From contig JAFQZS010000001.1 of NCBI GenBank assembly GCA_017405765.1, positions 1,874 to 65,873 on the forward strand: a stretch of DNA of 64,000 nucleotides, in the 5' to 3' direction. The first letter of the stretch is position 1. Every line of letters starts with the position of its first letter. Both the position numbers and the translations under genes were made by a program. This document shows, in pieces, positions 1 through 21,871 of the stretch. Under the pieces are notes generated by a model that was given only the letters and a program-made list of their open reading frames with translations, ran no database searches and was not told the origin of the DNA. Source of the stretch: Clostridia bacterium. GTDB taxonomy: Bacteria; Bacillota; Clostridia; Oscillospirales; RGIG577.

Positions 1-151
1 TCACCGCCTGACCATTGGAGACTTATGAAGATTAATGAGGACTTACGACGGGATATGACGGCATTTATTCTGCTTTGCATCAAATGCAAAAATGATTTAT
101 TCTTGATTATTCGGTCCGAATAGTTTATAATATTCACACGAGGTGATTTTC

Positions 152-688
152 ATGGAAACACGGCTCGGAAGGATTACTGCCAGCAAAGCCGGCGGCACCG
201 CAGGGAGCGGATCGAAGACGTATAAGCTGTCTTTGCCTTCATCATGGGTTTCGGCAATGGGTTTTTCCGACGACGGCGGGCGTGTGATCCTTTCCTTTGA
301 CGGCGATGCGATCATTATTCAGCCACAGCAGAGCGTGAAACAGTACAGGGCGTCTCGACTTGCTTCGGGGCATGAGTTACTTGAGATCCGATATTATAAC
401 GGAGAGGACCTGTGTACGCTGATCTGCGCAGACCGAACGGTCAAGGATCTTCGAGCGGAGAACTATACGGACAATCTCGTAAAAACTGCATTCGGAAAAA
501 ACCTGCTGCCCTCATGGGTGGATCTGGAAGCTTTTCTTGAGGAGCGCTGTATTCCGCGTCAGCGGGCCGGGCTTCGAGAGTATTTGGAAATGCTGGGGCT
601 GGACGAGTACGATCCTCTCGCCATCATTGCTAAAACACAGGGCCGCATGGCTGGGGACAATCAATGGATGGAGGTGCGTGAGGTCTAA
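152..688 (+). CDS. Putative partner/antitoxin of the downstream HipA-like kinase: an AbrB/SpoVT-like N-terminal segment fused to a HipA N-terminal-subdomain-like (HipS-like) segment
   Basis: ORF 143..688. A GAGGTGA RBS is followed by ATG at 152. The stop overlaps the kinase start (TAATG, 686-690). The N-terminus 'YKLSLPSSWVSAMGF..GRVILSFDGDAIIIQP' looks AbrB/MazE-like. The C-terminus 'LPSWVDLEAFLEERCIPRQRAGLREYLEMLGLDEYDPLAII' resembles the HipA N-terminal coupling subdomain. Confidence 0.45.
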   Translation: METRLGRITASKAGGTAGSGSKTYKLSLPSSWVSAMGFSDDGGRVILSFDGDAIIIQPQQSVKQYRASRLASGHELLEIRYYNGEDLCTLICADRTVKDLRAENYTDNLVKTAFGKNLLPSWVDLEAFLEERCIPRQRAGLREYLEMLGLDEYDPLAIIAKTQGRMAGDNQWMEVREV

Positions 689-1506
689 TGACTATTCGAT
701 TTGTAACAGACGAAAAGGTAGCTGAGACCTCCTCAAAGGGAAACCAGGAAAAATGGCAGGACGGCGGGCGCTGGTACAAGCTGGATCAGTTTGGTTATGA
801 AGGACTCGCAGAGACCGTTATATCCCACCTACTGGAGTACAGCAATATCGAAACGCACACACCATTTTGCTTCGTTCGCTATCGGATGGAGCGTATGAAC
901 GTTCACGGAAGAGACCGAAGCGGCTGTTCCAGCGCAGATTTTCTGCAGCCGGGGGAGTCTATCATCACGCTGTCCCATCTGTATAAAAGGACTAACCGCT
1001 CCTTGAAGGAGGCATTGACGCGCCTGCCCAGCGACAAGAAAAGGATGGAGTGGCTTGCCGGGGAGACGGCAGCATTTACCGGTCTTGAAATGTTCCCGCA
1101 GTATTTGACACTGCTCTTTGAGGTGGACGCGCTGTTTTTGAACGACGACCGTCATCTGAACAACATCGCCGTGCTGGAAAAGGACGGGCAGTTCGACTAT
1201 TGCCCCATCTTTGACAACGGGGCAGGGCTTTTGTCCAATATCCGGGCGGCGCTGATGGATATCGATCCTGCGGCGCTGATCCGCTCCGCCAAGGCGCGGC
1301 CGTTCAATACGACATTCAATCGACAGGTCATTCATGCGAGAAATCTTTTCGGCTCACAACTGCAAATCCCAAAACTCACAGAGGAAGCGATCCGGCGGGA
1401 GCTGGAAGAACCGCTGAGCTTCTATGCGCAGCGCGATCGGGAGTACATTGCGGATCGGGTTTGCCGAACGATCTTGACGCGGCAGAAGGCGGCCGCACAA
1501 GTATAA
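688..1506 (+). CDS. HipA-family serine/threonine kinase, short form with kinase core only (type II toxin-like)
   Basis: 272 aa. Gly-rich loop 'SSKGNQEKW' (compare HipA 'GAQEK'), catalytic loop 'NDDRHLNNIAV' (D-x-H-x-x-N) and metal-binding 'IFDNGAG'. Translationally coupled to the upstream ORF. Confidence 0.7.
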   Translation: MTIRFVTDEKVAETSSKGNQEKWQDGGRWYKLDQFGYEGLAETVISHLLEYSNIETHTPFCFVRYRMERMNVHGRDRSGCSSADFLQPGESIITLSHLYKRTNRSLKEALTRLPSDKKRMEWLAGETAAFTGLEMFPQYLTLLFEVDALFLNDDRHLNNIAVLEKDGQFDYCPIFDNGAGLLSNIRAALMDIDPAALIRSAKARPFNTTFNRQVIHARNLFGSQLQIPKLTEEAIRRELEEPLSFYAQRDREYIADRVCRTILTRQKAAAQV

Positions 1507-1539
1507 GAATATCAGAACGAAAGAGAGGATCACATTGCC

Positions 1540-2133
1540 ATGGCAAACGTTTATACTATAAAAGTCATTTATCAAGGATGCGAAAACAGGATCTTTAGAG
1601 AACTGCAAATCTCCTCCAACGCGCCGCTCAGCCAGTTGGGTTATACTGTTCTTGCGACCTTTGATACTCTGGCGTATCACTTGTTCTCCATCTCCTGTGA
1701 CGGAGACTCCTACGAGCTTCCCGACGAAGACATGGAGATTTCGAAAAGCGAGTGTCTGTTCTGCGTAAAACTCTCTGACTTGGATCTAAAGGTCGGAAGC
1801 ATGCTGGAAATGATATACGACTTCGGATGCGAGCAAGTATTTTCCTTGGAGATCACGGATATTCAGCCAATGAAGAAGGGGGCAGGACGCTCCTATCCGA
1901 AGATCACCGCCGGCGCGGGATCAGGTATCATCGACGATATGCCGGCAGACGAATTGCTTGCGCTCATACAGGATATTGACAAAAACGGAAGCTCCTCGTT
2001 TTATTATGAGGCAAAGCGGCCGGATGTCGTATGGGATTACAGGAAGTACGACTTGATGCTTGACAATCTGCTGCTTAAGGGCAAGATCGAAGAGATCGCA
2101 GACGGATACAGCGCATTTGAGGCATATTTGTAA
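1540..2133 (+). CDS. pRiA4b ORF-3-like family protein (plasmid/mobile-element associated domain)
   Basis: 197 aa. The N-terminus 'VYTIKVIYQGCENRIFRELQISSNAPLSQLGYTVLATFDTLAYHLFSI' fits the PRiA4_ORF3 pattern (vYqlkV.L.g..P.iWRr..v....tL..LH..iq.a.gW...HLh.F). RBS AGAGAGGA. Confidence 0.5.
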   Translation: MANVYTIKVIYQGCENRIFRELQISSNAPLSQLGYTVLATFDTLAYHLFSISCDGDSYELPDEDMEISKSECLFCVKLSDLDLKVGSMLEMIYDFGCEQVFSLEITDIQPMKKGAGRSYPKITAGAGSGIIDDMPADELLALIQDIDKNGSSSFYYEAKRPDVVWDYRKYDLMLDNLLLKGKIEEIADGYSAFEAYL

Positions 2134-2263
2134 AATGGGCTTTTGCCATCCTCCAATAAACTTAGGAGAAACCCTTGCATTTTCTGCCTGAAAACATAGG
2201 TTTTGCAGCGTTTTTTTAATGCACTTGCTCTAGTGCGTTATTCACCGCCTGACCAAATAAAAA

Positions 2264-2291
2264 CAGTCTGCACGAATGTGCAGGCTGTTTT
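2264..2291 (+). terminator. Rho-independent terminator after the pRiA4b-like gene
   Basis: Stem 'cagtctgcac'/'gtgcaggctg' (one G-U pair), 4-nt loop, followed by TTTT. Confidence 0.5.
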
Positions 2292-2301
2292 GCAATTTCC
2301 C

Positions 2302-2409
2302 TCACTTCACCTCTACAGGGACGTCGGTGCTTGCGCGCACGATGCGCGCAAAGGCTTCGGCGTCGGCTTTATCCATGAATTTATCGCGGTCGTACTTCGA
2401 CGTTCTGCC
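2302..2409 (-). pseudogene. Detached duplicate of the last 35 codons plus stop of the glycyl-radical activase gene (repeat copy A)
   Basis: 106 of 108 nt are identical to 3608..3715. Both mismatches are synonymous third-position changes (GCC/GCT Ala, TTT/TTC Phe). No upstream activase body is present. Confidence 0.85.
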
Positions 2410-2498
2410 TTTTGCCGCAAATAAATCAACGATCCGTGCAAATGCGAGGACTGTTTTGTAATATATATATCGCATAGTATTGCAAAGGGCAGCAAACG

Positions 2499-2831
2499 TC
2501 AGTAAATAATGGTCAGATCGTCGCTGTTAAAACGACATTCGATGACGCCGTAACCGTCGGGGCCATCACCCCAATATTTGGCATAAATGTTGCATTCAGC
2601 ATTATACTTCGTTACACCCGTTACAAGCACAATCGTTCCGTCCGGAATCTCCAATTCTTCGCCGTTCACATTAACGGGAGGATATTCGCTGACCTGCCTG
2701 TATTCCGCTATTAAGGCTCCATGCCTTGGCGGAATATCTATTATGTCCTGTTGTGTCCAATATGCCGTCGAGGAATAATTTTGGAAAGCGATATAGAAGC
2801 GTGATTTGTCATCCTTCCGTTCGACAAACAA
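2499..2831 (-). CDS. Hypothetical small protein (110 aa)
   Basis: Open frame only. TTG start, no convincing RBS, no recognisable motif. Confidence 0.3.
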   Translation of the reverse strand: MFVERKDDKSRFYIAFQNYSSTAYWTQQDIIDIPPRHGALIAEYRQVSEYPPVNVNGEELEIPDGTIVLVTGVTKYNAECNIYAKYWGDGPDGYGVIECRFNSDDLTIIY

Positions 2832-2878
2832 ATAAGAAGGCTTACTGTATCCTCTCTTAAAAACCTGATTAAGGATAA

Positions 2879-3562
2879 CTACTTCCGTTTTATGAGGCAG
2901 CGATCCGGTTTTAATCCAACGACTACCGTTCCGCTCATAAGTCGGCGCAGTCCAAAGCTCCTTGTTTTGGAAATCGTCTGTACTTTAATCACATATTTCT
3001 CATCACTGGAAATCACAACGTAACCGCTTTCTCCGGCGTAACTCCACCGATCACGCCCTTCCGGTATCACTTCGCCAAGCACTCCGAACAAAATGGCGAT
3101 GTATGTAAAGATTGCAACCAACATGATAAATATGCGGGCGCCTTCCCCCGGCTTCTTCTTCGTTGACATCACCATTGCCAGAGGTAGCGGAAAAATGAAT
3201 ATCCAGCCCAAAATCCAGAATATCCAAACCCACGGCCGGCGTTCCTTTTTGACCGGCTCGACCGGCTCGGCGGGCCTTTCCCGCGGCGGATTATATTTCG
3301 GGGGTTCTCTGTAATCGTCCCCCGGAGGCGGGGTATAATGCGTCTGCGAGGAGGAAGAGGCCCGATTTGCTTCCGCCTGCGCGCGCTGTCTGCCCTTTTC
3401 AAAGTTGTAGCCGACTTCCTCCGCGTCCTCAACTCTTATGGTCCGCACTTCATAGTCGATCAAAAGCACGGCGCCGCAATGCTCGCAGTGCGCTTGTGTA
3501 TTCGACGGGTCGACCTTCAGCACCGCTCCGCAGCGCGGGCATGACAATTCTATCAGTTTCAT
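2879..3562 (-). CDS. Zinc-ribbon membrane protein (hypothetical)
   Basis: Strong RBS AGGAGGAGG. N-terminal 'CPRCGAVLKVD...CEHCGAVLLID' zinc ribbon, a Pro-rich linker, two hydrophobic helices ('WVWIFWILGWIFIFPLPLAMV', 'IFIMLVAIFTYIAILFGVLG') and a C-terminal beta-rich domain. Confidence 0.55.
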   Translation of the reverse strand: MKLIELSCPRCGAVLKVDPSNTQAHCEHCGAVLLIDYEVRTIRVEDAEEVGYNFEKGRQRAQAEANRASSSSQTHYTPPPGDDYREPPKYNPPRERPAEPVEPVKKERRPWVWIFWILGWIFIFPLPLAMVMSTKKKPGEGARIFIMLVAIFTYIAILFGVLGEVIPEGRDRWSYAGESGYVVISSDEKYVIKVQTISKTRSFGLRRLMSGTVVVGLKPDRCLIKRK

Positions 3563-3607
3563 AATGCCTCCTCCTTTCCGCTAAAGCGTTACGTTTTTCG
3601 CTATACT

Positions 3608-3715
3608 TCACTTCACCTCTACAGGGACGTCGGTGCTTGCGCGCACGATGCGCGCGAAAGCTTCGGCGTCGGCTTTATCCATGAATTTATCGCGGTCGTA
3701 CTTCGACGTTCTGCC
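3608..3715. repeat. Repeat copy B of the 108-bp duplication (functional 3' end of the activase gene)
   Basis: Pairs with 2302..2409 as a direct repeat. The two copies are separated by 1198 bp. Confidence 0.85.
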
Positions 3716-4516
3716 GAAGCGCAGGCTCTTCGACACGCCGAGCGGATGATACGGCTCTATCTCGATTTTTATTACTCCGGCGTGCGCCTCCGCGAGCGCG
3801 GCGATATTCTCGGCGTGCTCCGTTCGGTCGTTCTTCCCCGGTATCAACGGGCAGCGAAGCACGATCTCTTTTCCCCTGTCGGAGAGAAGCCGCAGATTCG
3901 AAAGGATCGGCGTATTGTCAACTCCGGTAAACTCAATATGGCGCTCTTTTGACGTTTCCTTTATATCAAACAAAAACAGATCGACGTATTCAAGCAGCGA
4001 CTCAAAGCTTTCCTTCGACGCATAGCCGCTCGTTTCCATGCAAGTCGAAATACCACGTCTTTTTGCCTCCATGAGTATCTCTTTTGCAAAAGAAGGCTGA
4101 AACATCGGTTCTCCGCCCGAAAGCGTTATGCCTCCGCCGCTGGTTTTAAAAAACACTTCGTCCTTGTATGCCTCGTCTGCCGCTTCGTCTGCATCCATTT
4201 CCCTGCCCACAAGCTCAAGCGCGCCGAAATAACACTCCTCGACGCATTTTCCGCATGAAACGCAAGCGTCACGCATGAAGGTATGGCCTTTTTCATCCAC
4301 CTTATGGCATCCGTTGGGACATACGGCCGCGCATCGCCCGCACATGGCGCACTTTTTTTCAAGATACGATATCTCAGGCATATGTTTAAGCCCCTCGGGA
4401 TTGTGGCACCACAGACACCCAAGCGGACATCCCTTTAAAAAAAGATTTGTGCGGATGCCCGGCCCGTCATGTATCGAGAACCTTTGAATATCGAATATGA
4501 CTCCTTTGCTGCTCAT
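3608..4516 (-). CDS. Glycyl-radical enzyme activating protein (radical SAM, with ferredoxin-like insert)
   Basis: 'FSIHDGPGIRTNLFLKGCPLGCLWCHNPE' carries the CX3CX2C radical-SAM motif. Two extra 4Fe-4S motifs are present: 'CAMCGRCAAVCPNGC' and 'CVSCGKCVEEC'. The gene lies 15 bp downstream of the GRE gene. Confidence 0.9.
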   Translation of the reverse strand: MSSKGVIFDIQRFSIHDGPGIRTNLFLKGCPLGCLWCHNPEGLKHMPEISYLEKKCAMCGRCAAVCPNGCHKVDEKGHTFMRDACVSCGKCVEECYFGALELVGREMDADEAADEAYKDEVFFKTSGGGITLSGGEPMFQPSFAKEILMEAKRRGISTCMETSGYASKESFESLLEYVDLFLFDIKETSKERHIEFTGVDNTPILSNLRLLSDRGKEIVLRCPLIPGKNDRTEHAENIAALAEAHAGVIKIEIEPYHPLGVSKSLRFGRTSKYDRDKFMDKADAEAFARIVRASTDVPVEVK

Positions 4517-4531
4517 GGTCTTTTGCTCCTC

Positions 4532-6625
4532 TTAAAGCTTCGTGCGTTCTATTATCTCCTTCTGCTGCCACTTTGCGACATTGATAAAATACTCGGAAAA
4601 ACCGAAAAGTCTTACCGTAAGCGTTCTGTACGCCTGAGGATTTTCAAGCGCCGCTTCAAGCGTCGCGCGGTCTACGACGGTGAGCGCCGTATGTATGCCG
4701 TCTATATCGAAGTAGCCCTTTGTTATCGCGCCTATCATTTCGGGCGTAACGGGATTCGAGAACGTTAGGTTTATGCCGCCGGACGCAGTGCGTGTAAGCG
4801 GAAGCTTCGCCACGGATTTTAAAAGCGCCGTTACGCCCTTTTTGTCCGCGCCGTACACGGGCGACTGATTCTCCGAAAAGGCCTCGCCTCGCTTTCTGCC
4901 GTCCGGAGTCGCCTCCATCGCCCATCCGAAGTTGTTGTGATGGTTAAGCGAATAGAACGAGCCTATCGGGATATAATCCTCGGGCCACTGCATCTCGTCT
5001 ATCGCGTCTAAAACGGCGCTCATCGCCGCGTTCGCATATCTGTCGCCGTCCTCGTCGTCATTGCCGAATTTGGGGAATCTGTTTTTTATCTCAGCCCAAA
5101 GAAGCGGCTCGCCTTCAAAATTGTTCTTGAGAATATTTACGAACTGCTCAAGCGTATATCGTTTTTCTCTGAAAACAAGCTTGTCTACGGCAGTTATCGA
5201 GTCTATCACCGTAGCCGCACCGCAAAGATATACGTTCACAAGATGGCGTTTAACGCCGCCCTCAAGCGGATATCGGCAAGTTTCGGCGCAGTTTCCCATA
5301 AACATACCGTCAAACGTATGACCGAGCCTGTCCATAACGCGCCATATTGTAGAATTTCCGACTGTGAGCAGAAGATCGTTTTCAAGCGTTCTCCTTGCTT
5401 CGGCCTTAAAAAGTGAGATGAGCTCTTCTGCGGAACGTATATCGGGCACTTCTCCCCCATTTACGCCGAGCACGTTGTTCAGCCACTGAGGCATGGGCAG
5501 ATACCATTCGTTTCTTATGAGCCGCCAGTTGAGATCGACGCAGCAGCATCCCGAAAACGTGTGATCCGCCGCGATCTCGGGAGGTACGCCTTTTTTCACG
5601 AGCGTATTAAACACAAGCCTGTCGTTGTATATATGCATCTTGTCGGTTACCTTTGAAATGGTGCCATATACCTGCGCGGCGAAGTCAGGATCGGCCTCCT
5701 CGTTTACTCTGTTTACAATAACGGGCTCGGGCATGTTCGATATTTCCTCGGCCCGAAGTATTGCATACGACGCCGCGTTAGACATTGGTTTGCCGTTTTC
5801 GTCAAGACCGCCAAGCGTCATATATTGTTTGCTTGCACGGGACGGTATAGGCTTCATCGGCGGGTTGTACATGCCGATGCCGCACATGAAGTTAGGCATA
5901 ACGAGGAAGAACGCGATCATCGCGTCTAGCTCGTCTTGTGTTTTTCCGTTTGCGAGGTCCTTTTCGTAGAAGCGGTTCAAGTACTGGTCCGGACGACCGA
6001 AGCCGTAGTCGCGCGCGCCGACGCAGCAGCTTGCAATAAAATGGATGAACCACACGCTCTGAAGCGCGGAGAACAGATCGTATGCCGGCTCCATCGGCAC
6101 TATCGAAAGCGCGCGCGCAATGCGCCCGAAGCGTTCCTTCGCTTCGCCCTCAGACGCGTCGGCCCGCTTCCTTGCGGCCTCGGAATAGCGGCGCGCAAAG
6201 CTTTCTATGCCCTCGTATATTTTTCGCGAGTTTACCGCGAACACCTTCGACTGTACGTCGCCCAGCATGGAAGCGCGCTTTTCAATATTTTCAACTATGG
6301 CGCGAACGCCCAGGGTCAAAATATCGTCGTATCTTAAATGGATATGACCCGGATTGTCTATAACGTTCGTATGCGGAACTGCGCTCCACGAGGGATCCGG
6401 ATGTGCCTCCACCATACGACCCGCAAACACGTCTTCGTCAAAAAGCAGCGGCGAAAGCTCCTTTAACATAGCCGATATTATATCGGCATAGCCGGGACGC
6501 CTTATGAGGTAAGCCTTGGAAAACCGCTCAAGTATTTCTTCGCGCTCGTAAAAGCAGCACAGATTATCGGAATCAAGATATTTTTCCTTTAAAGCCTCAA
6601 TAAGCCTAATATCGGTCTCTGTCAT
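4532..6625 (-). CDS. Glycyl radical enzyme, PFL2/dehydratase-like family, short (697 aa), substrate unknown
   Basis: C-terminal glycyl-radical region 'TLTVRLFGFSEYFINVAKWQQKEIIERT'. Cys loop 'FSGCCCVDLN'. Adjacent activase. RBS GAGGAGGA. Confidence 0.85.
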   Translation of the reverse strand: MTETDIRLIEALKEKYLDSDNLCCFYEREEILERFSKAYLIRRPGYADIISAMLKELSPLLFDEDVFAGRMVEAHPDPSWSAVPHTNVIDNPGHIHLRYDDILTLGVRAIVENIEKRASMLGDVQSKVFAVNSRKIYEGIESFARRYSEAARKRADASEGEAKERFGRIARALSIVPMEPAYDLFSALQSVWFIHFIASCCVGARDYGFGRPDQYLNRFYEKDLANGKTQDELDAMIAFFLVMPNFMCGIGMYNPPMKPIPSRASKQYMTLGGLDENGKPMSNAASYAILRAEEISNMPEPVIVNRVNEEADPDFAAQVYGTISKVTDKMHIYNDRLVFNTLVKKGVPPEIAADHTFSGCCCVDLNWRLIRNEWYLPMPQWLNNVLGVNGGEVPDIRSAEELISLFKAEARRTLENDLLLTVGNSTIWRVMDRLGHTFDGMFMGNCAETCRYPLEGGVKRHLVNVYLCGAATVIDSITAVDKLVFREKRYTLEQFVNILKNNFEGEPLLWAEIKNRFPKFGNDDEDGDRYANAAMSAVLDAIDEMQWPEDYIPIGSFYSLNHHNNFGWAMEATPDGRKRGEAFSENQSPVYGADKKGVTALLKSVAKLPLTRTASGGINLTFSNPVTPEMIGAITKGYFDIDGIHTALTVVDRATLEAALENPQAYRTLTVRLFGFSEYFINVAKWQQKEIIERTKL

Positions 6626-6710
6626 ACGCTATTCCTCCTCATCGTTTTATATCTTAATTTATTATCTGTATCGCCTGTATTTGTTCAAAAACACCAATAT
6701 TATCAATTAT

Positions 6711-6739
6711 ATTTTAATAAAAATATACATTTTTGTCAA
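6711..6739 (-). promoter_or_regulatory. Putative sigma-A promoter of the GRE-activase operon
   Basis: On the minus strand: TTGACA, 17 nt, TAAAAT, about 80 nt upstream of the GRE start. Confidence 0.45.
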
Positions 6740-6756
6740 GAAAATTCGCCCTCTGA

Positions 6757-6785
6757 TTGACTTTGCGTGTGAAATATGCTATCGT
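6757..6785 (+). promoter_or_regulatory. Putative sigma-A promoter of the ACT-domain gene (divergent from the GRE promoter)
   Basis: TTGACT, 17 nt, TGcTATCGT (extended -10). Confidence 0.4.
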
Positions 6786-6821
6786 ATATTTGTAAATCAT
6801 AAAGAAAAGGAATAAGACGAA

Positions 6822-7187
6822 ATGGAGCTTAAAATACTGCCCTGCGAGTTTACCGTATGCAAGGTCTCTGATATGGGATCTTTTGACTTAAGGCGGAAAT
6901 TTTACTTTATAGGCAAAACAGACGAGGAAATATCCATAGTTTGCCCCAAAAGCGATACGCCGCCCAATACGCTTAAGCGCAGCGACGGCTGGAGAGGCTT
7001 TCGGATCAGTGGAACGCTCGATTTCTCACTCATCGGTATCTTATCAAAGCTGTCGGGCATTCTAGCTGATAACAATATCGGCATATTCGCCGTTTCCACC
7101 TTCAATACCGACTATATCCTCGTTAAAGAGGAAGATCTTGACCGTGCCGTATCGGCTCTGAGCGCGGCCGGATATACTATAGTGTAA
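6822..7187 (+). CDS. ACT-domain-containing protein (ACT_7/CASTOR-like small ligand-binding protein)
   Basis: 121 aa. 'LKILPCEFTVCKV...' followed by 'WRGFRISGTLDFSLIGILSKLSGILADNNIGIFAVSTFNTDYILV', typical of stand-alone ACT proteins. Confidence 0.55.
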   Translation: MELKILPCEFTVCKVSDMGSFDLRRKFYFIGKTDEEISIVCPKSDTPPNTLKRSDGWRGFRISGTLDFSLIGILSKLSGILADNNIGIFAVSTFNTDYILVKEEDLDRAVSALSAAGYTIV

Positions 7188-7210
7188 TCATGCTTAAAAC
7201 GAGAAGCGAA

Positions 7211-7247
7211 AAGCGAAAGTCCTTCCTCCCGGACTTTCGCTTGTTTT
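7211..7247. terminator. Bidirectional terminator between the convergent ACT gene and yunB
   Basis: 12-bp stem 'aagcgaaagtcc'/'ggactttcgctt' with T-runs on both strands. Confidence 0.6.
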
Positions 7248-7965
7248 AATGCATCTGATAATCGTTTATTATACCTACTGTGTCGCTTTTGTCGCCTATA
7301 ACGTAAGTAAAGCCGCTCGGCACCTCTCCTACTATTACGGTCTCTGCAACAGTTATGCGCGAGGCGACCTGTGTTTTTGCATGCTTCCTCGGCAGAATAA
7401 CGCTTATATCCACGCTTACGTCAAGAAAAATACGGTGTCTTACCTGATTTATGCCGGCTGCCCAAAAGTCGTTCGATATTTCAATATTTACGATACTTAT
7501 CGGCAAAAAGCGTATGGGGATCTTAGGCCCCCGCTCAAGAAGCATCTCATTTCCAAGCACCGTACCAAGCCTTATTGATATATCGGAGGGTTTTATCTCA
7601 TTTACCGCCCGAAGGACGTTCTGCGATACGCGCGACTTTAATCTGTTTATTCTCACAGTATCCACCTGCATCGCGCTTATCTTTTTGTTTTCGTCATAAG
7701 AAAACGTGACGAGGTCGTTATAGTCTATTCCCTCCTCTGACAGCGTTTCGGATATAGCCTCAAATATCGCTTCTGAGAAAACGTAGTTGATCTTTGATAA
7801 AGCTTCCGCTTCCACCACGGGAGCAAAACGCTTCTCTGCCGCAAACAAAAGCGCGACAATAAGAGCGCTTGTCATTATAAATACAGTTATCCTGTACGCC
7901 GTATTGCGCGCGCCTGTTTTTGATCTTACGCGCGCCGGGCGTTTCTTAAATCCCGCACGCCGCAT
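7246..7965 (-). CDS. yunB: Sporulation protein YunB
   Basis: 239 aa. Basic N-terminus plus a single TM helix. C-terminal 'GINQVRHRIFLDVSVDISVILP' is YunB-like. RBS GGAGGTG. Confidence 0.55.
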   Translation of the reverse strand: MRRAGFKKRPARVRSKTGARNTAYRITVFIMTSALIVALLFAAEKRFAPVVEAEALSKINYVFSEAIFEAISETLSEEGIDYNDLVTFSYDENKKISAMQVDTVRINRLKSRVSQNVLRAVNEIKPSDISIRLGTVLGNEMLLERGPKIPIRFLPISIVNIEISNDFWAAGINQVRHRIFLDVSVDISVILPRKHAKTQVASRITVAETVIVGEVPSGFTYVIGDKSDTVGIINDYQMH

Positions 7966-8050
7966 TTTGCCACCTCCGATATATCATACTATGTTGTTTT
8001 TCATAAAAACGTGATATAATTTTTAAAAAAGCGGGAAAGGAACAAAAAAA

Positions 8051-9226
8051 GTGGAAGATATAAAAAGCGCGCTTGAGCGCCTTTTTTCGAAAGATATAAT
8101 ACTTATAACGGTGAGCAACTGCAGAAAAAAAGACGAAAGCGTAAGAAAAGTTTCTGTGCGCCCGTTTATTCTTCGCGAAAAGACACATTTTCAGTTTGAA
8201 CGCATAGTAAATGATCAGGCGTTTCATGAAAACATGCCTAAGGAAGCCGCCATGCATGAGCTTGAAGAAATGCTTATGCGTGATTACCGTCAGCTTGACG
8301 CGCGCACCGTCGGATGTGACGTTTTAATAAAGCTTTCAAAAAAAGAAAAGCTCCTTTATTCGGAGCATAAAAACGACAATAAAAGCAATGAGTACAGACA
8401 TAACAGAACAAAGAAGTATATTTTAAGCGAAGGCGAGTTTTCGCCCGTATTGTGCGAGCTTGGCGTTCAGACGAAGGACGGCCGCATATCTGCGCCGATG
8501 TATGATAAATTCAAGCAGATAAACCGTTTTTTAGAGTTTATCGACGATATCGTATCAAAGGATGCTGCCGAAGAATATAAAATAATCGATTTCGGCTGCG
8601 GCAAGTCATACCTTACGTTTCTTGTATATGAATACTTTATGAAGCGCGGGCGCAAGGTGCGTATAGTAGGCCTTGACCTTAAGCGCGAAGTCATCGAAAA
8701 ATGCCGCAATATCGCCGCGCGATATAATTACACCGGGCTAACCTTTGAAGTGGGAGACATAAAGGATCATTCCCCTTCTTTTATCCCCGATATGGTGATC
8801 TCGCTCCACGCGTGCGATACGGCTACCGATTTTGCGATATTTAACGCGATAAGCTGGGGTGCTCGCTGCATTTTAGCCATTCCGTGTTGTCAGCACGAGC
8901 TTAATCTCCAGGTGAAAAAATCCTACGGACTCATGTCGTCCTACGGCTTGTTGAAAGAACGCTTTTTGGCGCTTTCGACCGATGCGATACGCGCAAAGCT
9001 TTTGGAATACTCCGACTACGACGTTTCCGTTATGGAATTTATCGACATGGAGCACTCGCCTAAGAATATAATGATACGCGCAAAAAAGAGACGCCTTGGG
9101 CAAAGCAAGGAAAAAAAGGCAAAACTTTTAAACGAAGTGGTGACCTTCTTAAATGAATACAATCTCACTCAGACTCTCCATACGCTTATAACGAAGAACC
9201 ATCACATAAAAAACGGCGGCGCATAA
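8051..9226 (+). CDS. Class I SAM-dependent methyltransferase (Methyltransf_32-like)
   Basis: Motif I 'IIDFGCGKSYLT'. 'VGLDL' and 'ISLHACDTATD' are also present. GTG start after GGAAAGGAA. Confidence 0.65.
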   Translation: MEDIKSALERLFSKDIILITVSNCRKKDESVRKVSVRPFILREKTHFQFERIVNDQAFHENMPKEAAMHELEEMLMRDYRQLDARTVGCDVLIKLSKKEKLLYSEHKNDNKSNEYRHNRTKKYILSEGEFSPVLCELGVQTKDGRISAPMYDKFKQINRFLEFIDDIVSKDAAEEYKIIDFGCGKSYLTFLVYEYFMKRGRKVRIVGLDLKREVIEKCRNIAARYNYTGLTFEVGDIKDHSPSFIPDMVISLHACDTATDFAIFNAISWGARCILAIPCCQHELNLQVKKSYGLMSSYGLLKERFLALSTDAIRAKLLEYSDYDVSVMEFIDMEHSPKNIMIRAKKRRLGQSKEKKAKLLNEVVTFLNEYNLTQTLHTLITKNHHIKNGGA

Positions 9227-9241
9227 GCGCCGCCGTTTTTT
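9208..9241. terminator. Bidirectional terminator between the methyltransferase gene and hpf
   Basis: Perfect 15-bp stem 'aaaaaacggcggcgc'/'gcgccgccgtttttt' overlapping the TAA stop. Confidence 0.7.
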
Positions 9242-9272
9242 ATGTATCAAATCATGTTATAAGCCGAATATT

Positions 9273-9803
9273 TTATTCAACAGCCTCTATAACAGCATAG
9301 TTTCCGTCTTTTCTTCTATATACGATCGAATAAACTCCGGAAATGCTCTTGAAAGTAAAGAAGTTGTGGTTCAGCATGTTCATCTGAAGTATCGCTTCTT
9401 CGGTCGTCATGGGCTTTAAGGGGAATTTCTTCACCTTCACCACATTAAACTCGCCTTCCTCTTCGACAGGCTCGGCGGGTGCGACGTCTATCTCAGTCTT
9501 GTCAAATCCGCTTCTTAATTTTTTCTCAAGGCGCGTTTTGTTCTTGCGGATCTGACGCTCTACAATATCGATATCCTCCGCTAAGGATTCCATCATATCT
9601 TTTGTAGTGCTCTGCGCCCGGAAAATGAGTGAGCCTTGGTAGATGGTGAGCTCGACAGTTTCCCTGTCTCTTTCCCGCGTGATAGTTACGTTTGCCTTTG
9701 ACTCATTGGCAAAGTACTTGTCGAGCTTCTTTAACTTTTTCTCGACCTTCTCCCTAAGCGAATCGCCCAGTTCAAACTTTCTTGCTGTGATTGTAATGTT
9801 CAT
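9273..9803 (-). CDS. hpf: Ribosome hibernation promoting factor (long HPF)
   Basis: 'MNITITARKFELGDSLREKVEKKLKKLDKYF' plus a C-terminal dimerisation domain 'KVKKFPLKPMTTEEAILQMNMLNHNFFTF'. The start is moved to the ATG at 9803, behind an AAAGGAG RBS. Confidence 0.9.
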   Translation of the reverse strand: MNITITARKFELGDSLREKVEKKLKKLDKYFANESKANVTITRERDRETVELTIYQGSLIFRAQSTTKDMMESLAEDIDIVERQIRKNKTRLEKKLRSGFDKTEIDVAPAEPVEEEGEFNVVKVKKFPLKPMTTEEAILQMNMLNHNFFTFKSISGVYSIVYRRKDGNYAVIEAVE

Positions 9804-9933
9804 AATCTCACTCCTTTGCATCTTTTATGCAACTATATTATACAACATTCAGGAGAAAATGCAAGGTGTTTTTGTTGCTTTTCACATGAAATTCACAAAA
9901 AATATATCTCAAACTATATAAAATGCCTATATC

Positions 9934-10776
9934 TCATATCACCGCTGTTTTATGACGCGTTACATGACAGCTTATGTTTACTGCTACGGGGAGTCCCGCT
10001 ATATGAGTGGCATACGTTTTTATCTTTACGCCCAGCGCAGTATTCTTTCCTCCTATGCCCTGAGGGCCGACGCCTGTTTTATTTATGCTTTCAAGCATTC
10101 GCTTCTCAAGGGCCGCGTAACGCGGGCTTTCATTTTCAATGTCAAGCGGTATCTGAAGCGCCTCCTTGGCAAGCCGCGCGCACACCTCGAACGTGCCTCC
10201 AACGCCTACCCCCACCACAACGGGCGGACAGGGATTGCTTCCTGCCGAAACAACACACTGTGTCACAAAATCTATTATATCGTCCTCTGATGCGGCAGGC
10301 GTAAACATTTTAAGCCTGCTCATATTTTCACTTCCAAAGCCCTTCGGAGCCGCCGTTATCTTCACCTTGTCGCCGGCGACTATCGAAAAATGCACGACTG
10401 CCGGCGTGTTGTCATCGGTGTTTACGCGTTCAAGCGGATCGGATACAACGCTTTTTCGAAGATATCCGCCCACATATGCGCGCCTTACGCCTTCGTTTAT
10501 CGCCTCGTTCAGATCGCCGCCCGTAAAATGGACGTCCTGCCCTATCTCCATAAATACCACCGCCATGCCCGTGTCTTGACATATCGGTACGTTAAGCTCC
10601 TTTGCGGCGTCTAAGTTCTTCAAAAGATCGCCTAAAATGTTTTTCCCCGCCGGAGATATCTCGCTGTCTTTTGCACGGCATATCGACTGCTCCACATCTT
10701 CCGGCAAAAAAAGATTTGCCTCAACGAAAAGTCTCTCCAGCGTATCGCGCACAACGCCAACGTCAATTTCCCTCAT
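9934..10776 (-). CDS. Fe-S type hydro-lyase alpha subunit (class I fumarate hydratase / L(+)-tartrate dehydratase alpha)
   Basis: 280 aa. 'LNVPICQDTGMAVVFMEIGQDVHF' and 'KGFGSENMS' are typical of the FumA/TtdA N-terminal domain. Confidence 0.75.
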   Translation of the reverse strand: MREIDVGVVRDTLERLFVEANLFLPEDVEQSICRAKDSEISPAGKNILGDLLKNLDAAKELNVPICQDTGMAVVFMEIGQDVHFTGGDLNEAINEGVRRAYVGGYLRKSVVSDPLERVNTDDNTPAVVHFSIVAGDKVKITAAPKGFGSENMSRLKMFTPAASEDDIIDFVTQCVVSAGSNPCPPVVVGVGVGGTFEVCARLAKEALQIPLDIENESPRYAALEKRMLESINKTGVGPQGIGGKNTALGVKIKTYATHIAGLPVAVNISCHVTRHKTAVI

Positions 10777-10788
10777 TTATATACCCCC

Positions 10789-11958
10789 TTAGATCGGCAT
10801 TCCCCATGAAAGCCTGCCGTCAGAAAATACATATCTTATCTTTGAACCAAAGTCCAAAGGCTCCCCTTCGATTATTACGATATCGGCGTCTTTGCCGCAA
10901 GAGAGCGACCCTACGCGGTCGTCTATATTAAGGATGCGCGCGGGCGTTATCGTTATGGCCCGAAGCGCTTCGTTGCGTGAAAGCCCTGCCTTAACATACA
11001 TCATTGCGCACAGGCGCAGATAATCTATCGGCGTTTCGGGATGATCCGTTATAATCGAAAATGGAACTTTGTTTTTAAGCATGGCCTGCGCCGCCTCAAA
11101 CGACAGATTTTTAAGCTCCGGCTTCGACCTTCCCGCCATGACAGGCCCAAGCATCACGCGCGCTTCAGCCTCTTTAAGCTCGTCTGCTATAAGAGCGGCG
11201 TCTGTCGCGTGTACTACTACTGCGTCCAGCGAGAATTCGCGCGCTATACGTATCGCCGTAAATATATCGTCGGCGCGGTGCGCGTGGAAATGCGCCTGTA
11301 TCTCACGCTTTAAAAGCGGTATAAGGCTTTCGCATTTCATATCGAACTCCGGCTCGTCAAGCTCGCTGTCCTCTGCCGCCCGCTCTTTATCCTCAAGATA
11401 TCTTTTCGCCTTGAATAGATTTTCGCGTATTATCGCCGCAGTAGCCATTCGCGTAGTTGGCGTCTGGCCTTTCGCATTGTACGCGCCCTTCGGATTCTCA
11501 CCAAGCGCGAACTTTATTGCAATAGGACCGCGCAGTATCATTTTGTCGATGACGCGCCCATACGTCTTTATTGCCGCAAGCTGTCCGCCTATCGGATTTG
11601 CGCTGCCCGGTCCTGTTACTACTGTAGTAACACCGCCCGAAAGCGCCTCTAAAAAGCCGCGGTCAAGCGGGTTTATGGCGTCTATCGCCCTAAGCTGCGG
11701 CGTTGCGGGATCGGTGTCCTCGTTTCCGTCGTCGCCCTCAAAGCCGAGCGAATCCTCCCACATGCCGAGATGACAGTGCGAATCCACAAAACCGGGACAT
11801 GCGCAAAGGCCGCTCATATCACGCGTATCGTCGTCGCCAAAATCAAGCTCGTCCATAGCGCCGACTGAGACGATTTTCCCGTCTTCTCCTATATGTATGA
11901 AGCCGTTTTCCACGGCTTTGCCTTCCATAGTATATATTTTTAAATTTGTAAGGAGCAT
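10789..11958 (-). CDS. Amidohydrolase-family metal-dependent hydrolase
   Basis: 'PGFVDSHCHLGM' (HxH), 'HFHAHRADD' and 'SIITDHP'. 389 aa. Confidence 0.7.
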   Translation of the reverse strand: MLLTNLKIYTMEGKAVENGFIHIGEDGKIVSVGAMDELDFGDDDTRDMSGLCACPGFVDSHCHLGMWEDSLGFEGDDGNEDTDPATPQLRAIDAINPLDRGFLEALSGGVTTVVTGPGSANPIGGQLAAIKTYGRVIDKMILRGPIAIKFALGENPKGAYNAKGQTPTTRMATAAIIRENLFKAKRYLEDKERAAEDSELDEPEFDMKCESLIPLLKREIQAHFHAHRADDIFTAIRIAREFSLDAVVVHATDAALIADELKEAEARVMLGPVMAGRSKPELKNLSFEAAQAMLKNKVPFSIITDHPETPIDYLRLCAMMYVKAGLSRNEALRAITITPARILNIDDRVGSLSCGKDADIVIIEGEPLDFGSKIRYVFSDGRLSWGMPI

Positions 11959-11967
11959 ATTGACCTC

Positions 11968-12885
11968 TTATATCGAAAGCTCTTCGTTTATATATCTGCC
12001 CGCCATATGCGCGGCAATAGCGCCGTCTGCTGCGGCAGTTACAACTTGACGTAATTCTTTCTTTCTTATATCTCCGGCCGCAAAAATGCCCGGGATATTT
12101 GTTTTTAGCGTCTCGTCTGTTATGATATAGCCCGCTTCATCAAGCGTTATGAGCCCCTTTACTATGCCCGTTTCGGGAACGGTGCCAACGGCGATGAATA
12201 CACCGTCCATCGGAAGCTCTTTTTTCTCTTTTGTTTTTACGTTTTCGGCAGTTACTGCGTTTACGTTGAATTTTCCTGATATCTCCGTTAATACCGTATC
12301 GTACATTACGTTTATCTTATCGTTGGCTAAAACGAGCCGAGACAGGTGGCGCGCTCCTCTGAATTCATCGCGGCGGTGAACAAGCGTCACGCCGCTCGCA
12401 AAATTCGACAGATACAGCGCATCTTCAAGAGCAGTATTTCCTCCGCCGACAACTGTCACGTTCTTATTCTTAAAAAAGCTTCCGTCGCACGTTGCGCAGT
12501 AGGAAACACCGCTTCCCGTGAAGCGTTCTTCTCCGTTTATACCGAGCTTTCTTCTGTAAGCTCCCATAGCAAGCACTATTACCTTGGCTTCAAGCTTTTC
12601 TGCTTCTAAAAGCACTTCCTTTACGGCGCCTTTGTCGCTTATCTTTAACACATCGGCCTCCATAAATTCGCATCCGAGCGCTTCGGCGCTTTCCCTCATG
12701 GCTTCGGCAAGGTCAAATCCGCTTATCTGTTTTATGCCGGGATAATTTTCTATAGAATAAGTCGTTGTCATCTGCCCGCCGATAAAGCCGCGTTCAACGA
12801 CAACGCAGGAAAGGCCGGCGCGCCTGGCATAAATGGCGCATGAAAGCCCTGCCGGTCCTCCGCCTATTATAATAATATCGTACAT
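11968..12885 (-). CDS. trxB: Thioredoxin-disulfide reductase
   Basis: 'YDIIIIGGGPAG', redox centre 'SYCATCDG' and 'VVGGGNTALEDALYL'. The start is moved to the ATG at 12885, behind a GGAGGGGA RBS. Confidence 0.9.
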   Translation of the reverse strand: MYDIIIIGGGPAGLSCAIYARRAGLSCVVVERGFIGGQMTTTYSIENYPGIKQISGFDLAEAMRESAEALGCEFMEADVLKISDKGAVKEVLLEAEKLEAKVIVLAMGAYRRKLGINGEERFTGSGVSYCATCDGSFFKNKNVTVVGGGNTALEDALYLSNFASGVTLVHRRDEFRGARHLSRLVLANDKINVMYDTVLTEISGKFNVNAVTAENVKTKEKKELPMDGVFIAVGTVPETGIVKGLITLDEAGYIITDETLKTNIPGIFAAGDIRKKELRQVVTAAADGAIAAHMAGRYINEELSI

Positions 12886-16042: not shown

Positions 16043-17068
16043 TTAAAACTTGTTTACAACTACCTTCTCATACTTATGGTCGTCGCTTTTAAGCTCTTCA
16101 AATACGCGCTGAAGGTCGCCCAAGCCAACTGACGCCGAATAATATCTCTTTAAGTTTAGCTTCCTCGGATTTTCAGTAACAAGGCGCACCACTTCATCGA
16201 AATCGGCCGGAGTATGCGCGTTGAACGGGCGGATACGGATAAGCTTAGTACCCAGCATAAAAAAGTTTATCGGCGCGCTCTTATTATACATGGCAAGGGT
16301 AGCGATAGTCGAATTGCGCCTGAGCGTTAGAATGCCGGTGTTCAAAAATCTTGCGTTGCCGGAGCATTCAAAATGAGCGTTTAGGCCGCGCGAATCCGAA
16401 AGGAGTATATCGATTATTTCGGGATCTTCGGGGTCAAGCACCTTCGTTACCTCTCCGTAATCCATTACATTCAAAGCGCGAGTTTTGTTCTTCTCAAACA
16501 TGGCAATGTATTTCGCGCCGAAGAATTTGCACCACATGGCGACGAGAGCGCCCATGACGCCGCCTCCGCTTATGAGCACCTTCCAGCCGGGCCGAACGCC
16601 CATCTCGCGCACCATATGATACGCCGTAGCCGCAGGCGAAAGCATAAGCGCCTCAAAATCGGAAAACTTGTCCGGTATCTTTTTTACAAATTCGGGGCGA
16701 GCCTCGAAATACTCCGAAAAGGTGCCTTGTGCAAGCTTGCTCTTTCCGGGGGTGTTGCGGTTTTTATAGCAGAGGTTTTCCTGCCCGCTTTTGCAGAAAT
16801 CGCACTCAAGACAGGCGGCAAGCGGCAAAACGGTCACCCTGTCGCCTTCTTTTAAATCATCGCGCGGGCCGGCGTCCGCTACCGTTCCCACGATCTCGTG
16901 GCCCGGCACAGTTTCGCCCGTTATATCGCCCAATCCCCAAAGCGTAGTATCATATCCCGTTACACCGGCCAGCTTTGTTTTTATTATAACCTGTTTGCCG
17001 TTCGGCTCGGGGTCGTGTACCTGAGTCACTTCGATTTTTTCCTTGCCCATTATCATAGCTGCGCGCAT
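16043..17068 (-). CDS. MDR-superfamily dehydrogenase paralog 1 (divergent; catalytic-zinc ligands substituted)
   Basis: 341 aa. 'PGHEIVG', structural-Zn 'CLECDFCKSGQENLC' and Rossmann 'VLISGGGVMGAL' are present. However, the catalytic Cys site reads 'GVTGYD' (Thr) and the 'EP' Glu site reads 'LSP'. Confidence 0.8.
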   Translation of the reverse strand: MRAAMIMGKEKIEVTQVHDPEPNGKQVIIKTKLAGVTGYDTTLWGLGDITGETVPGHEIVGTVADAGPRDDLKEGDRVTVLPLAACLECDFCKSGQENLCYKNRNTPGKSKLAQGTFSEYFEARPEFVKKIPDKFSDFEALMLSPAATAYHMVREMGVRPGWKVLISGGGVMGALVAMWCKFFGAKYIAMFEKNKTRALNVMDYGEVTKVLDPEDPEIIDILLSDSRGLNAHFECSGNARFLNTGILTLRRNSTIATLAMYNKSAPINFFMLGTKLIRIRPFNAHTPADFDEVVRLVTENPRKLNLKRYYSASVGLGDLQRVFEELKSDDHKYEKVVVNKF

Positions 17069-17089
17069 GAGAAGACCTCCAAACTAAAA

Positions 17090-17120
17090 ATAAAGACGGT
17101 ACATAGAGTACCGTCTTTAT
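17090..17120 (-). terminator. Terminator after the MFS gene, abutting the RBS of paralog 1
   Basis: 13-bp stem 'ataaagacggtac'/'gtaccgtctttat'. On the minus strand it is followed by TTTTTAGTTTGGAGG and then ATG. Confidence 0.6.
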
Positions 17121-17155
17121 AATAACTTATATTACCGTGAAAATCAAGCCAAAGC

Positions 17156-18457: not shown

Positions 18458-18590
18458 AGTAAAAAAACCTCCTATAAAATAAATTTAATAAATAAACCTG
18501 TTCCCTTTTCCCCGAACCTAAATGCAATCTGTGTTTTTTAGAGCGAGAGCAAATTAGGCAAAAATAGGGGAACAATTGTTTATACAAAGT

Positions 18591-18619
18591 ATGATAACAC
18601 CAAGTTCACAATTTGTCAA
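18591..18619 (-). promoter_or_regulatory. Putative sigma-A promoter of the MFS gene
   Basis: On the minus strand: TTGACA, 17 nt, TGtTATCAT (extended -10). Confidence 0.5.
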
Positions 18620-18634
18620 ACTATTTGTCAAACT
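18611..18634. repeat. Perfect tandem 12-mer (atttgtcaaact x2) overlapping the stop of paralog 2 and the -35 of the MFS promoter
   Basis: 18611-18622 and 18623-18634 are identical. Each copy contains TTGACA on the minus strand. Confidence 0.8.
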
Positions 18635-19664: not shown

Positions 19665-19711
19665 AATACATACACCTCTCTTGATTATTTTTCGATATGC
19701 TTTCTCGTATT

Positions 19712-19743
19712 ATTGAAAATCAGCAAAAATGCATATTTTCAAT
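19712..19743. promoter_or_regulatory. 9-bp perfect inverted repeat in the 5' UTR/operator position of paralog 2
   Basis: 'attgaaaat', 14 nt, 'attttcaat', located between the putative -10 and the RBS. Confidence 0.4.
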
Positions 19744-19749
19744 GATACT

Positions 19750-19778
19750 ATTTTATCATTATTGCATAAAAAACCCAA
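19750..19778 (-). promoter_or_regulatory. Putative sigma-A promoter of paralog 2
   Basis: On the minus strand: TTGGGT, 17 nt, TAAAAT. Confidence 0.4.
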
Positions 19779-19799
19779 TCGGAAAATTTGCCTATTTTT

Positions 19800-19819
19800 T
19801 TGTTTACACTTTGTTTACA
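19800..19819. repeat. Direct repeat TTGTTTACA x2 with 11-bp phasing, upstream of the paralog 2 promoter
   Basis: 19800-19808 and 19811-19819 are identical, spaced one helical turn apart. Confidence 0.6.
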
Positions 19820-20051
19820 TTTTATTAGGATTTTATTATTGAATGATAAAAAATCACCTTTTTTGACTATGTTTATAATACATTTCCTCATTTTTTACAT
19901 TATACAGGCAAGTTTTTTCTTCAAATTAGCTTGCTTAATATAAAAAACACTTCTTAATACTTAAAAAATCAGTGATTTTATAATTCTTTTTTCTTATCTG
20001 ATTTATTTTTACAGCACAGATCCTGCATCATAAGCTTTCTTAATAACAAAC

Positions 20052-20080: not shown

Positions 20081-20105
20081 AAGTATTTATACTGTTATGC
20101 TATTA

Positions 20106-21852: not shown

Positions 21853-21871
21853 TCTATAAGCATTATAATTA

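Follow-up and report, generated by a model that had tools for sequence, protein, structure and literature searches.

A predicted short glycyl radical enzyme and its activase from a Clostridia bacterium fall in a distinct, uncharacterised PFL2-like clade that lacks the CXE glutamate

Microbes of gut and sediment use glycyl radical enzymes (GREs) for chemically difficult anaerobic reactions. In this study, we describe the gene for a short GRE and the adjoining gene for its cognate activase on a 64,000-nucleotide stretch of DNA, hereafter the window, from Clostridia bacterium (Oscillospirales; RGIG577; GenBank assembly GCA_017405765.1, contig JAFQZS010000001.1, positions 1,874 to 65,873 of the forward strand). 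An earlier model-made reading of the letters (the sequence-only reading) had singled out this pair as an isolated GRE–activase system, and both open reading frames lie where it had placed them, encoding 697 and 302 amino acids. Analysis of the translated proteins, their relatives and a structural model indicates that the GRE belongs to a distinct, uncharacterised and phylogenetically broad clade of GREs resembling the PFL2-type enzymes (PFL, pyruvate formate-lyase). The two genes are as follows.

4532..6625, minus strand: GRE gene, 697 amino acids, with a PFL-like barrel and a glycyl radical domain (open reading frame, Pfam, AlphaFold2 and Foldseek)
3608..4516, minus strand: cognate radical S-adenosylmethionine (SAM) activase gene, 302 amino acids (TIGR02494, Radical_SAM and Fer4 matches)

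Pfam assigns the GRE barrel (PF02901; 227.9 bits, E = 3.6e-67, cut-off 24.3) and the glycyl radical domain (PF01228; 55.2 bits, E = 1.1e-14, cut-off 22.2) to the longer product, and the shorter one scores 329 bits against TIGR02494 (cut-off 174.35). Since the domain matches are full-length and highly significant, chance is not a concern for the identity of either protein. Direct reading of the activase sequence places the CX3CX2C motif at C30/C34/C37 and two ferredoxin-type CX2CX2CX3C motifs at C56/C59/C62/C66 and C85/C88/C91/C95, in agreement with several Fer4 Pfam matches. CX3CX2C together with an insert bearing two ferredoxin-type motifs is the arrangement of the PFL2-class activases, and the motifs for the two extra clusters noted in the sequence-only reading are thereby confirmed. 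The activase of PFL itself is better modelled by TIGR02493, against which the window activase reaches 180.6 bits.

The register of the catalytic loops was taken from HMMER alignments to HplG (7VUA), PflD (8YJO) and glycerol dehydratase (1R8W), which are mutually consistent, and a MAFFT alignment including Escherichia coli PflB, PflD and YbiW gave the same register; conservation was counted in an alignment of 80 family sequences. The positions concerned are these.

5534..5554, minus strand: Cys-loop motif S358-G-C360-C361-C362-V-D364, residues 358–364 (translation, alignments and conservation)
4592..4612, minus strand: Gly-loop motif R672-L-F-G675-F-S-E678, residues 672–678 (translation and alignments)
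6011..6016, minus strand: codons of R205-D206, in the β-strand that corresponds to that of glycerol dehydratase H281-S282 and the HplG Asp (alignments)
6344..6346, minus strand: codon of H94 of the G-H motif, aligned with His164 of glycerol dehydratase and Arg176 of PFL

Both loop motifs, SGCCCVD and RLFGFSE, are present as first read, and alignment against characterised GREs, the check then proposed, puts the catalytic Cys and Gly inside them. C360 aligns with C427 of HplG, the catalytic Cys of PflD and glycerol dehydratase, C419 of PFL and the Cys of G-C-[VI]-E (HMMER and MAFFT), and is a Cys in all 80 family members and all 27 other aligned GREs; it is predicted to be the thiyl-radical Cys. 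The residues that follow call for a different interpretation from the one first given. In the three HMMER alignments and in the MAFFT alignment the position of the Glu in the Cys-x-Glu (CXE) motif of eliminases and isomerases is occupied by C362, and D364 lies at Cys+4, so the Asp does not stand in place of the Glu as had been supposed. Nor is the loop a hybrid of PFL and eliminase: in the MAFFT alignment G359 is the counterpart of PFL C418 and C360 that of PFL C419, so that the extra Cys follows the radical Cys here and precedes it in PFL, which makes the resemblance to PFL superficial. G675 aligns with G734 of PFL and with the Gly of RVAGYS in PflD and YbiW (HMMER and MAFFT), and is the predicted radical site.

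The Gly loop of the window GRE does not fit an older PROSITE-type pattern, which we take to be [IVT]-[CSA]-G-Y, with [CSA] before the Gly. Set against the GRE fingerprint RVxG[FWY]x6-8[FL]x4Qx2[IV]x2R (PMC13450708), the segment R672-L-F-G-F-SEYFIN-V-AKWQ-Q-KE-I-IE-R fits at the fixed positions except for Val to Leu673 and [FL] to Val683, both conservative, and the residue before the radical Gly falls on an 'x'. Of the deviations originally claimed for this motif, the Leu for Val is therefore real, if conservative, while the bulky Phe before the Gly proves to be a trait of the clade, in which Tyr, Phe or Thr occurs there. Outside the loops, D206 aligns with the Asp of the G-G-D-H strand of HplG and with S282 of glycerol dehydratase (HMMER and MAFFT), R205 with H281 of glycerol dehydratase, and H94, in a retained G-H motif, with His164 of glycerol dehydratase and the corresponding His of PflD and YbiW.

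A search of 5.8 billion proteins returned about 48 relatives of 650–715 amino acids at 34–78% identity, after which ordinary GREs follow at 27% or less; none of the sources of these matches gives the family proteins a specific name. Among 1.84 billion cluster representatives, phmmer found 4152 of the GRE superfamily, about 30 of which align full-length with more than 280 bits, and a scan of one genome per GTDB species revealed a family locus in no fewer than 136 of these species. Among the hosts are Clostridia of the gut and rumen (Oscillospiraceae, Acutalibacteraceae, Lachnospiraceae and the isolate Ructibacterium gallinarum DSM 107454) as well as Syntrophomonadales, Smithellaceae, Victivallales/Lentisphaeria, Kiritimatiellia, Spirochaetales, Brocadiaceae and Armatimonadia. 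Conservation at the key positions is as follows.

H94, R205, D206, C360 and N586: invariant, 80 of 80
G675: Gly in 79 of 80; the one exception is a truncated sequence
E585: Glu in 79 of 80
E678: Glu in 78 of 80
Position 361: Cys 63, Asn 16, Ser 1 (n = 80)
Position 362: Thr 48, Arg 18, Asn 5, Cys 4, Ala 3, Ser 2, and never Glu (n = 80)
Position 364: Asp 66, Glu 7, Asn 6, Ser 1 (n = 80)
Position 674, before the Gly: Tyr 59, Thr 11, Phe 9

R672, G675, S677 and E678 are invariant or nearly so, and the family can be recognised by a Cys-loop signature, [ST]-[AG]-C-[CN]-x-x-[DE], and a Gly-loop signature, R-x-[YFT]-G-F-S-E. The pattern C-x3-[D/E] is also kept by distant representatives, for example in GCCRLE, GCSTID, GCSSVE and ACSRLD. 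The CCC triplet, by contrast, is no family feature, contrary to what the first reading implied: position 362 is variable, C361 is replaced in a minority of members, and the triplet itself is limited to the immediate clade of the window (the window, L001, L002 and P0002–P0004). None of the curated models is reached, the window GRE scoring 253.6 bits against TIGR01774 (PFL2-3 subfamily; cut-off 678.2) and at most 209 bits against all NCBIfam equivalog models (cut-offs of at least 1000), and its identity to any solved GRE is 20–22%. These values, together with the missing CXE Glu, bear out the earlier suggestion of a subfamily without a characterised member. No description of the clade was found in the literature searched, including GRE papers of 2024–2026; a paper on a limonene GRE concerns an unrelated BSS-type enzyme.

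The AlphaFold2 model, built on a 55-sequence alignment, has a pLDDT of 91.8 and a pTM of 0.93, and both the Cys loop and the Gly loop are modelled as β-hairpins, with Cys-loop strands at residues 356–357 and 363–364. Foldseek matched it to more than 50 GRE chains with probability 1.00 and TM scores of 0.79–0.86, as a GRE barrel would be. The top matches are glycerol dehydratase, HplG, CutC and propanediol dehydratase (TM 0.86, query-normalised, at 20–22% identity), and BSS, MASS and HPAD rank lower (TM 0.79–0.82); the structural comparison with CutC and glycerol dehydratase proposed at the outset thus gives a match to both. That the protein is shorter than known GREs also holds, characterised PFL2-type GREs in the PDB having 765–850 amino acids. 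PflD and YbiW share a homologous N-terminal helix with the window GRE, and the missing length is made up mostly of an internal deletion of 24 + 42 residues, following positions 74 and 81, with smaller deletions in loops, so that the GRE is short mainly through a deletion of about 66 amino acids near the N-terminus. Within the N-terminal helix, C24 (motif D-N-x-x-C-F-x-E-R-E; residues 23–24 correspond to DNA ~6554–6559) is invariant family-wide; PflD has Ser at this position.

All characterised GRE 1,2-eliminases and isomerases keep the CXE motif according to a review of June 2026 (PMC13450708); our comparison group comprised glycerol dehydratase, propanediol dehydratase, HypD, CutC, IslA, HpsG, HplG, PflD and YbiW. 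In these enzymes the Glu is hydrogen-bonded to the substrate hydroxyl, and it is absent from the family under study, where Cys+2 (C362 in the window) is never Glu. Glycerol dehydratase (Clostridium butyricum DhaB1, 1R8W/1R9D) and the GRE 1,2-propanediol dehydratase are the best structural matches. The window GRE has in common with glycerol dehydratase the ten-stranded barrel, the Cys and Gly finger loops with aligned catalytic residues, the G-H motif and a ferredoxin-type activase. However, the two are only ~21% identical, Glu435 and H281-S282 of glycerol dehydratase are replaced by C362 and R205-D206, the window GRE is ~66 residues shorter in the N-terminal region and also lacks some of the segment after the Cys loop, and neither a 1,3-propanediol dehydrogenase nor microcompartment genes are present. 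HplG, the trans-4-hydroxy-D-proline C–N lyase/isomerase, is the best sequence match among solved structures (E = 3.4e-54; TM 0.86) and supplies the Asp aligned with D206, but it keeps C427-x-E429, has 785 amino acids and is ~22% identical, and genes of proline metabolism are found around neither the window gene nor its relatives. PflD and YbiW are anhydrohexitol-6-phosphate isomerases of 'anhydroglycolysis', which act on sugar phosphates and feed an aldolase (PMC13450708). They differ from the window family in keeping CXE and the full N-terminal region (765–810 amino acids), and the family reaches 198.8 bits against the PflD-type model NF007437 (cut-off 1109). As judged from the model and the alignments, the family folds, and probably works, like a PFL2-type eliminase or isomerase but fails both CXE and the curated cut-offs, and no characterised class includes it.

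The Cys-Cys dyad raises the alternative of PFL-like acyl transfer, in which C360 and C361 would act as a radical-relay and covalent pair cleaving a 2-keto acid or a similar carbonyl compound and R205 would bind the carboxylate. The dyad occurs in 63 of the 80 family members, the invariant Arg probably lies in the pocket, the C-terminal domain aligns with PFL (E = 1.2e-24, residues 511–695), and a Cys loop with more than one Cys is otherwise known only in PFL and TdcE (PMC13450708). However, the register is opposite, with no extra Cys before the relay Cys; position 361 is Asn in 16 and Ser in one of the 80 sequences; PFL Arg176 is replaced by His; TIGR01255 gives 85.4 bits against a cut-off of 994.2; and the N-terminal two thirds yield no HMMER alignment to PFL. 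Eliminases rank first among the structural matches, the activase carries the ferredoxin insert of the PFL2 class, and no pta, ack or formate-channel genes lie nearby. Acyl transfer of this kind is consequently regarded as unlikely. The fold, the retained G-H motif and the type of activase place the window GRE with the PFL2-like 1,2-eliminases and isomerases, and not with pyruvate formate-lyase.

The pair appears to be equipped for expression. The activase starts 15 nt past the GRE stop and has its own GAGGAG ribosome-binding site, and two signals precede the GRE.

6634..6640, minus strand: GRE ribosome-binding site GAGGAGG, 8 nt upstream of the ATG (sequence reading)
6711..6739, minus strand: sigma-70-like promoter TTGACA-17-TAAAAT, 11/12 matches, ~85 nt upstream of the GRE start (consensus match alone)

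No riboswitch or leader was found 5′ of the GRE in 6626–6821, an Rfam search of window positions 1–12000 at E ≤ 1 having given sub-threshold matches at chance level. The departure of the motifs from the classical fingerprints and the lack of pathway partners in the window could also be explained by a decaying or non-catalytic paralogue whose unusual residues reflect relaxed constraint. This is extremely improbable given the intact reading frames, the ribosome-binding sites and the promoter-like site, the conservation of the unusual residues across phyla (at least 80 sequences and 136 species genomes), a 92% identical orthologue at the syntenic locus L001 and the model pLDDT given above. An anti-phage role was also considered and rejected: PADLOC gave no match for the GRE, and for the activase a weak, generic radical-SAM (viperin) similarity.

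The surroundings of the pair in the window are sparse. No transporter, shell or dehydrogenase gene adjoins it, and tblastn with the neighbours of its relatives (DeoC, XylB, NHL, GH43, glycerophosphodiester phosphodiesterase, Fe-alcohol dehydrogenase and others) found none of these in the window, the hits being limited to distant Zn-dehydrogenase paralogues at 16–26.6 kb. The statement that the operon contains nothing else is thus correct for the window, although relatives lie in carbohydrate operons. The divergent neighbour at 6822–7187 (+) is indeed an ACT-domain protein (ACT_7 in Pfam). Locus L001 is syntenic with the window, sharing the HPF, methyltransferase and YunB flanks and the downstream Zn-ribbon gene; because the ACT gene is absent from it, we consider this gene unlinked to the pair and reject it as a regulator. 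The downstream Zn-ribbon membrane gene was likewise rejected as a partner, since it is shared with L001 alone and is missing from L081, L087 and L088.

In the window this Zn-ribbon/transmembrane gene (2499–3562, minus strand) is split into frames of 227 and 110 amino acids that both match a single 357-amino-acid protein of L001; the split probably reflects a pseudogene, with a frameshift or a nonsense mutation, or else a sequencing error. A 123-nt direct repeat (2287–2409 and 3593–3715; 93% identity, 98% over 108 coding nt) consists of the last 35 codons of the activase, its stop and 15 nt, copied 1306 bp downstream so as to bracket the Zn-ribbon membrane gene or genes, the downstream copy being followed by a terminator-like hairpin (2283–2268, minus strand). 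L001, the orthologous locus, lacks this repeat; in the window it could be an insertion scar, a partial duplication or an assembly artefact. Farther away, positions 16043–26595 (minus strand) hold seven near-tandem paralogous genes for Zn-dependent medium-chain dehydrogenases of 341–350 amino acids, one at 16043–17068 and six within 18621–26595, with a major facilitator superfamily transporter gene (17156–18457) among them; their best NCBIfam similarities (scyllo-inosose, threonine and idonate dehydrogenases) are far below cut-off. At 143–2133 (+) lies an accessory-looking block in which the overlapping frames 143–688 and 688–1506 weakly match the PADLOC candidate defence pair PDC-M03 B/A and are followed by a PRiA4_ORF3-like gene (1540–2133, +).

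Gene context was surveyed at 80 family loci, 54 from the gut-Clostridia clade and 16 of the Victivallales type; of the 78 family GRE genes that could be placed in a clade, 48 have an activase gene as neighbour. The other members of the CCC/GCCN clade are, like the window pair, bare GRE(–GRE)–activase modules. On two independent metagenomic contigs, close homologues of the window GRE (72–78% identity) form, with a large serine recombinase, a recombinase–GRE(–GRE)–activase cassette at feoB. In L081 (7452–16052) a 6.7-kb recombinase–GRE–GRE–activase insert splits feoB, the flanking frames aligning to residues 2–392 and 399–513 of E. coli FeoB, and L087 (1649–9778) has the order FeoA, FeoB_N fragment, recombinase, GRE, activase, FeoA and intact FeoB. 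Since the CCC clade of the window is bare and sometimes a mobile module, its substrate and product would seem to need no dedicated partner enzymes and may be dealt with by housekeeping metabolism.

The gut-Clostridia clade (~42% identity) often lies within a conserved operon with the order IclR, a second unrelated short GRE, GH43, DeoC, Zn-dehydrogenase, XylB-type FGGY kinase, NHL/SMP-30 propeller, family GRE and activase. The DeoC of this operon scores 229 bits against TIGR00126 (cut-off 117) and the XylB-type kinase 411.8 bits (cut-off 380). Across the 54 loci the NHL propeller was found 19 times, the XylB-type kinase and IclR 18 times each, the Zn-dehydrogenase 14 times, DeoC 11 times and GH43 7 times. 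The DeoC/kinase operons match the logic of PflD and YbiW, the partner aldolase being DeoC in the gut clade versus an FSA-type enzyme for PflD/YbiW. In the Victivallales clade (TACNRVD) an Fe-alcohol dehydrogenase often lies between GRE and activase and is adjacent in 6 of the 16 loci, and in other subclades the neighbours are DeoR, glycerophosphodiester phosphodiesterase, D-2-hydroxyacid dehydrogenase, PfkB or a xylose-isomerase-like TIM barrel. From these contexts, the product in the gut Clostridia is probably a 2-deoxy-aldose or its phosphate, formed for example from a pentitol or pentitol phosphate and passed to the adjacent DeoC, and that in the Victivallales probably an aldehyde reduced by the adjacent Fe-alcohol dehydrogenase.

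Additional GREs were noticed in the survey. At L009 (770–12928, R. gallinarum), and also at L011, L012, L021, L022 and L029, three different short GREs and two activases occur within 13 kb. The co-operonic second GRE (~685 amino acids) has the Cys loop N-S-C-M-G-I-S and the Gly loop RIGG[YF]S and lacks CXE, and in the third (649 amino acids) the motifs are A-C-W-E and RIWGWS, with Trp preceding the radical Gly; both are further uncharacterised GRE clades. At L058 (2429–4810) a 793-amino-acid GRE homologue beside the family member has R-I-H-G-T-F at the Gly loop, with no aromatic residue after the Gly, which may reflect misalignment or an atypical radical site.

The DeoC co-located in the gut clade and the extra thiols beside the radical Cys would also fit a reduction like that of ribonucleotide reductase, in which the thiyl radical would initiate hydroxyl loss and a C361–C362 disulfide would provide the reducing equivalents, yielding a deoxy product, for instance a deoxypentose that DeoC could use. 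Such a bond between neighbouring residues would be strained, however; C362 is confined to the closest clade and C361 is missing in 17 of the 80 sequences; no linked thioredoxin or formate-supply genes occur in the loci surveyed; and the fold is PFL2-like and not NrdD-like. Such a reduction is very improbable.

The syntrophic relatives suggest a different alternative, a GRE acting on a hydrophobic or acidic substrate in the manner of the X-succinate synthases or the decarboxylases. Relatives 60–63% identical to the window GRE occur in syntrophic Syntrophomonadales and Smithellaceae near acyl-CoA ligases, AMP-ligase genes lying near three of the five GCCNVE-type genes, and the X-succinate synthases, as exemplified by BSS, are likewise not known to carry the CXE Glu. 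On the other hand, the adjacent small-subunit genes of X-succinate synthases and arylacetate decarboxylases are found neither in the window, where the GRE and activase genes are 15 nt apart, nor at the 80 loci, which share no conserved small neighbour, and no small Cys-rich frames occur in the operon. BSS, MASS and HPAD match less well than the eliminases in sequence (E 1e-24 to 1e-30) as well as in structure, His94 is kept, and the gene contexts are polar and carbohydrate-related. The prospect of such an activity is quite poor.

Taken as a whole, the evidence leads us to favour, with moderate confidence, the explanation that the two genes form a self-contained and functional GRE system, as their intact motifs and conservation suggest, and that the enzyme most likely catalyses the thiyl-radical dehydration, another elimination or the ring-opening isomerization of a small hydroxylated molecule, for instance a polyol, sugar or sugar phosphate. 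The activase, with SAM and a [4Fe-4S] cluster, would abstract hydrogen from G675 on the C-terminal Gly loop. At each turnover the glycyl radical would oxidize C360 at the Cys-loop hairpin tip, and the resulting thiyl radical would take a hydrogen atom from the hydroxylated substrate. H94 would serve as the acid for the leaving group, as His164 does in glycerol dehydratase, and in place of the CXE Glu the base would most likely be one of the conserved acids predicted to line the pocket, D364 (Cys+4, on the same face of the hairpin), D206 and E585. The invariance of R205 points to a substrate with an anionic or strongly polar group.

Several points weigh against this dehydratase or isomerase assignment. 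The CXE Glu of all characterised eliminases and isomerases is absent (alignments; PMC13450708), and the chemistry may differ for that reason. The neighbours in the clade of the window are uninformative, so that context gives no substrate prediction for the CCC clade; the informative contexts come from relatives 34–44% identical, in which the residues at Cys+1 to Cys+3 differ, and the DeoC-linked pathway is our own inference from them. Where D364, D206, R205 and E585 lie with respect to C360 was derived from alignment and secondary structure only, and the function of the family was read from sequences, gene context and a model.

A bolder proposal, which we hold as tentative and think rather unlikely to be right, is that the family constitutes a new mechanistic class of GREs. 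In this class the C-x3-[D/E] loop and the invariant Arg-Asp pair, with a second thiol beside the thiyl Cys in most members, would replace the CXE base; the gut-Clostridia GRE would dehydrate or isomerize a pentitol or pentitol phosphate to a 2-deoxypentose or its phosphate for DeoC; and the CCC type would be a stand-alone version carried in two- or three-gene serine-recombinase cassettes. If this is true, it would represent a previously unrecognised anaerobic route for pentoses or pentitols in gut Clostridia.

Each of the GRE clades newly assigned so far (CutC, HypD, IslA, HplG and PflD/YbiW) has given a new metabolic route. With thousands of GRE sequences unannotated, an uncharacterised clade is not surprising in itself. 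Whole GRE clades still await annotation (PMC13450708). The feature described here is real, intact and uncharacterised, and its family may possess new chemistry. The family breaks two generalizations of the current literature: the retention of CXE by eliminase-like GREs, and the restriction of Cys loops with more than one Cys to PFL and TdcE. A cultured host with an informative operon, R. gallinarum DSM 107454, makes the family open to direct experiment, and assignment of its function would reveal either a new mode of acid/base catalysis in the GRE pocket or a new carbohydrate pathway in anaerobes of the ruminant and human gut.

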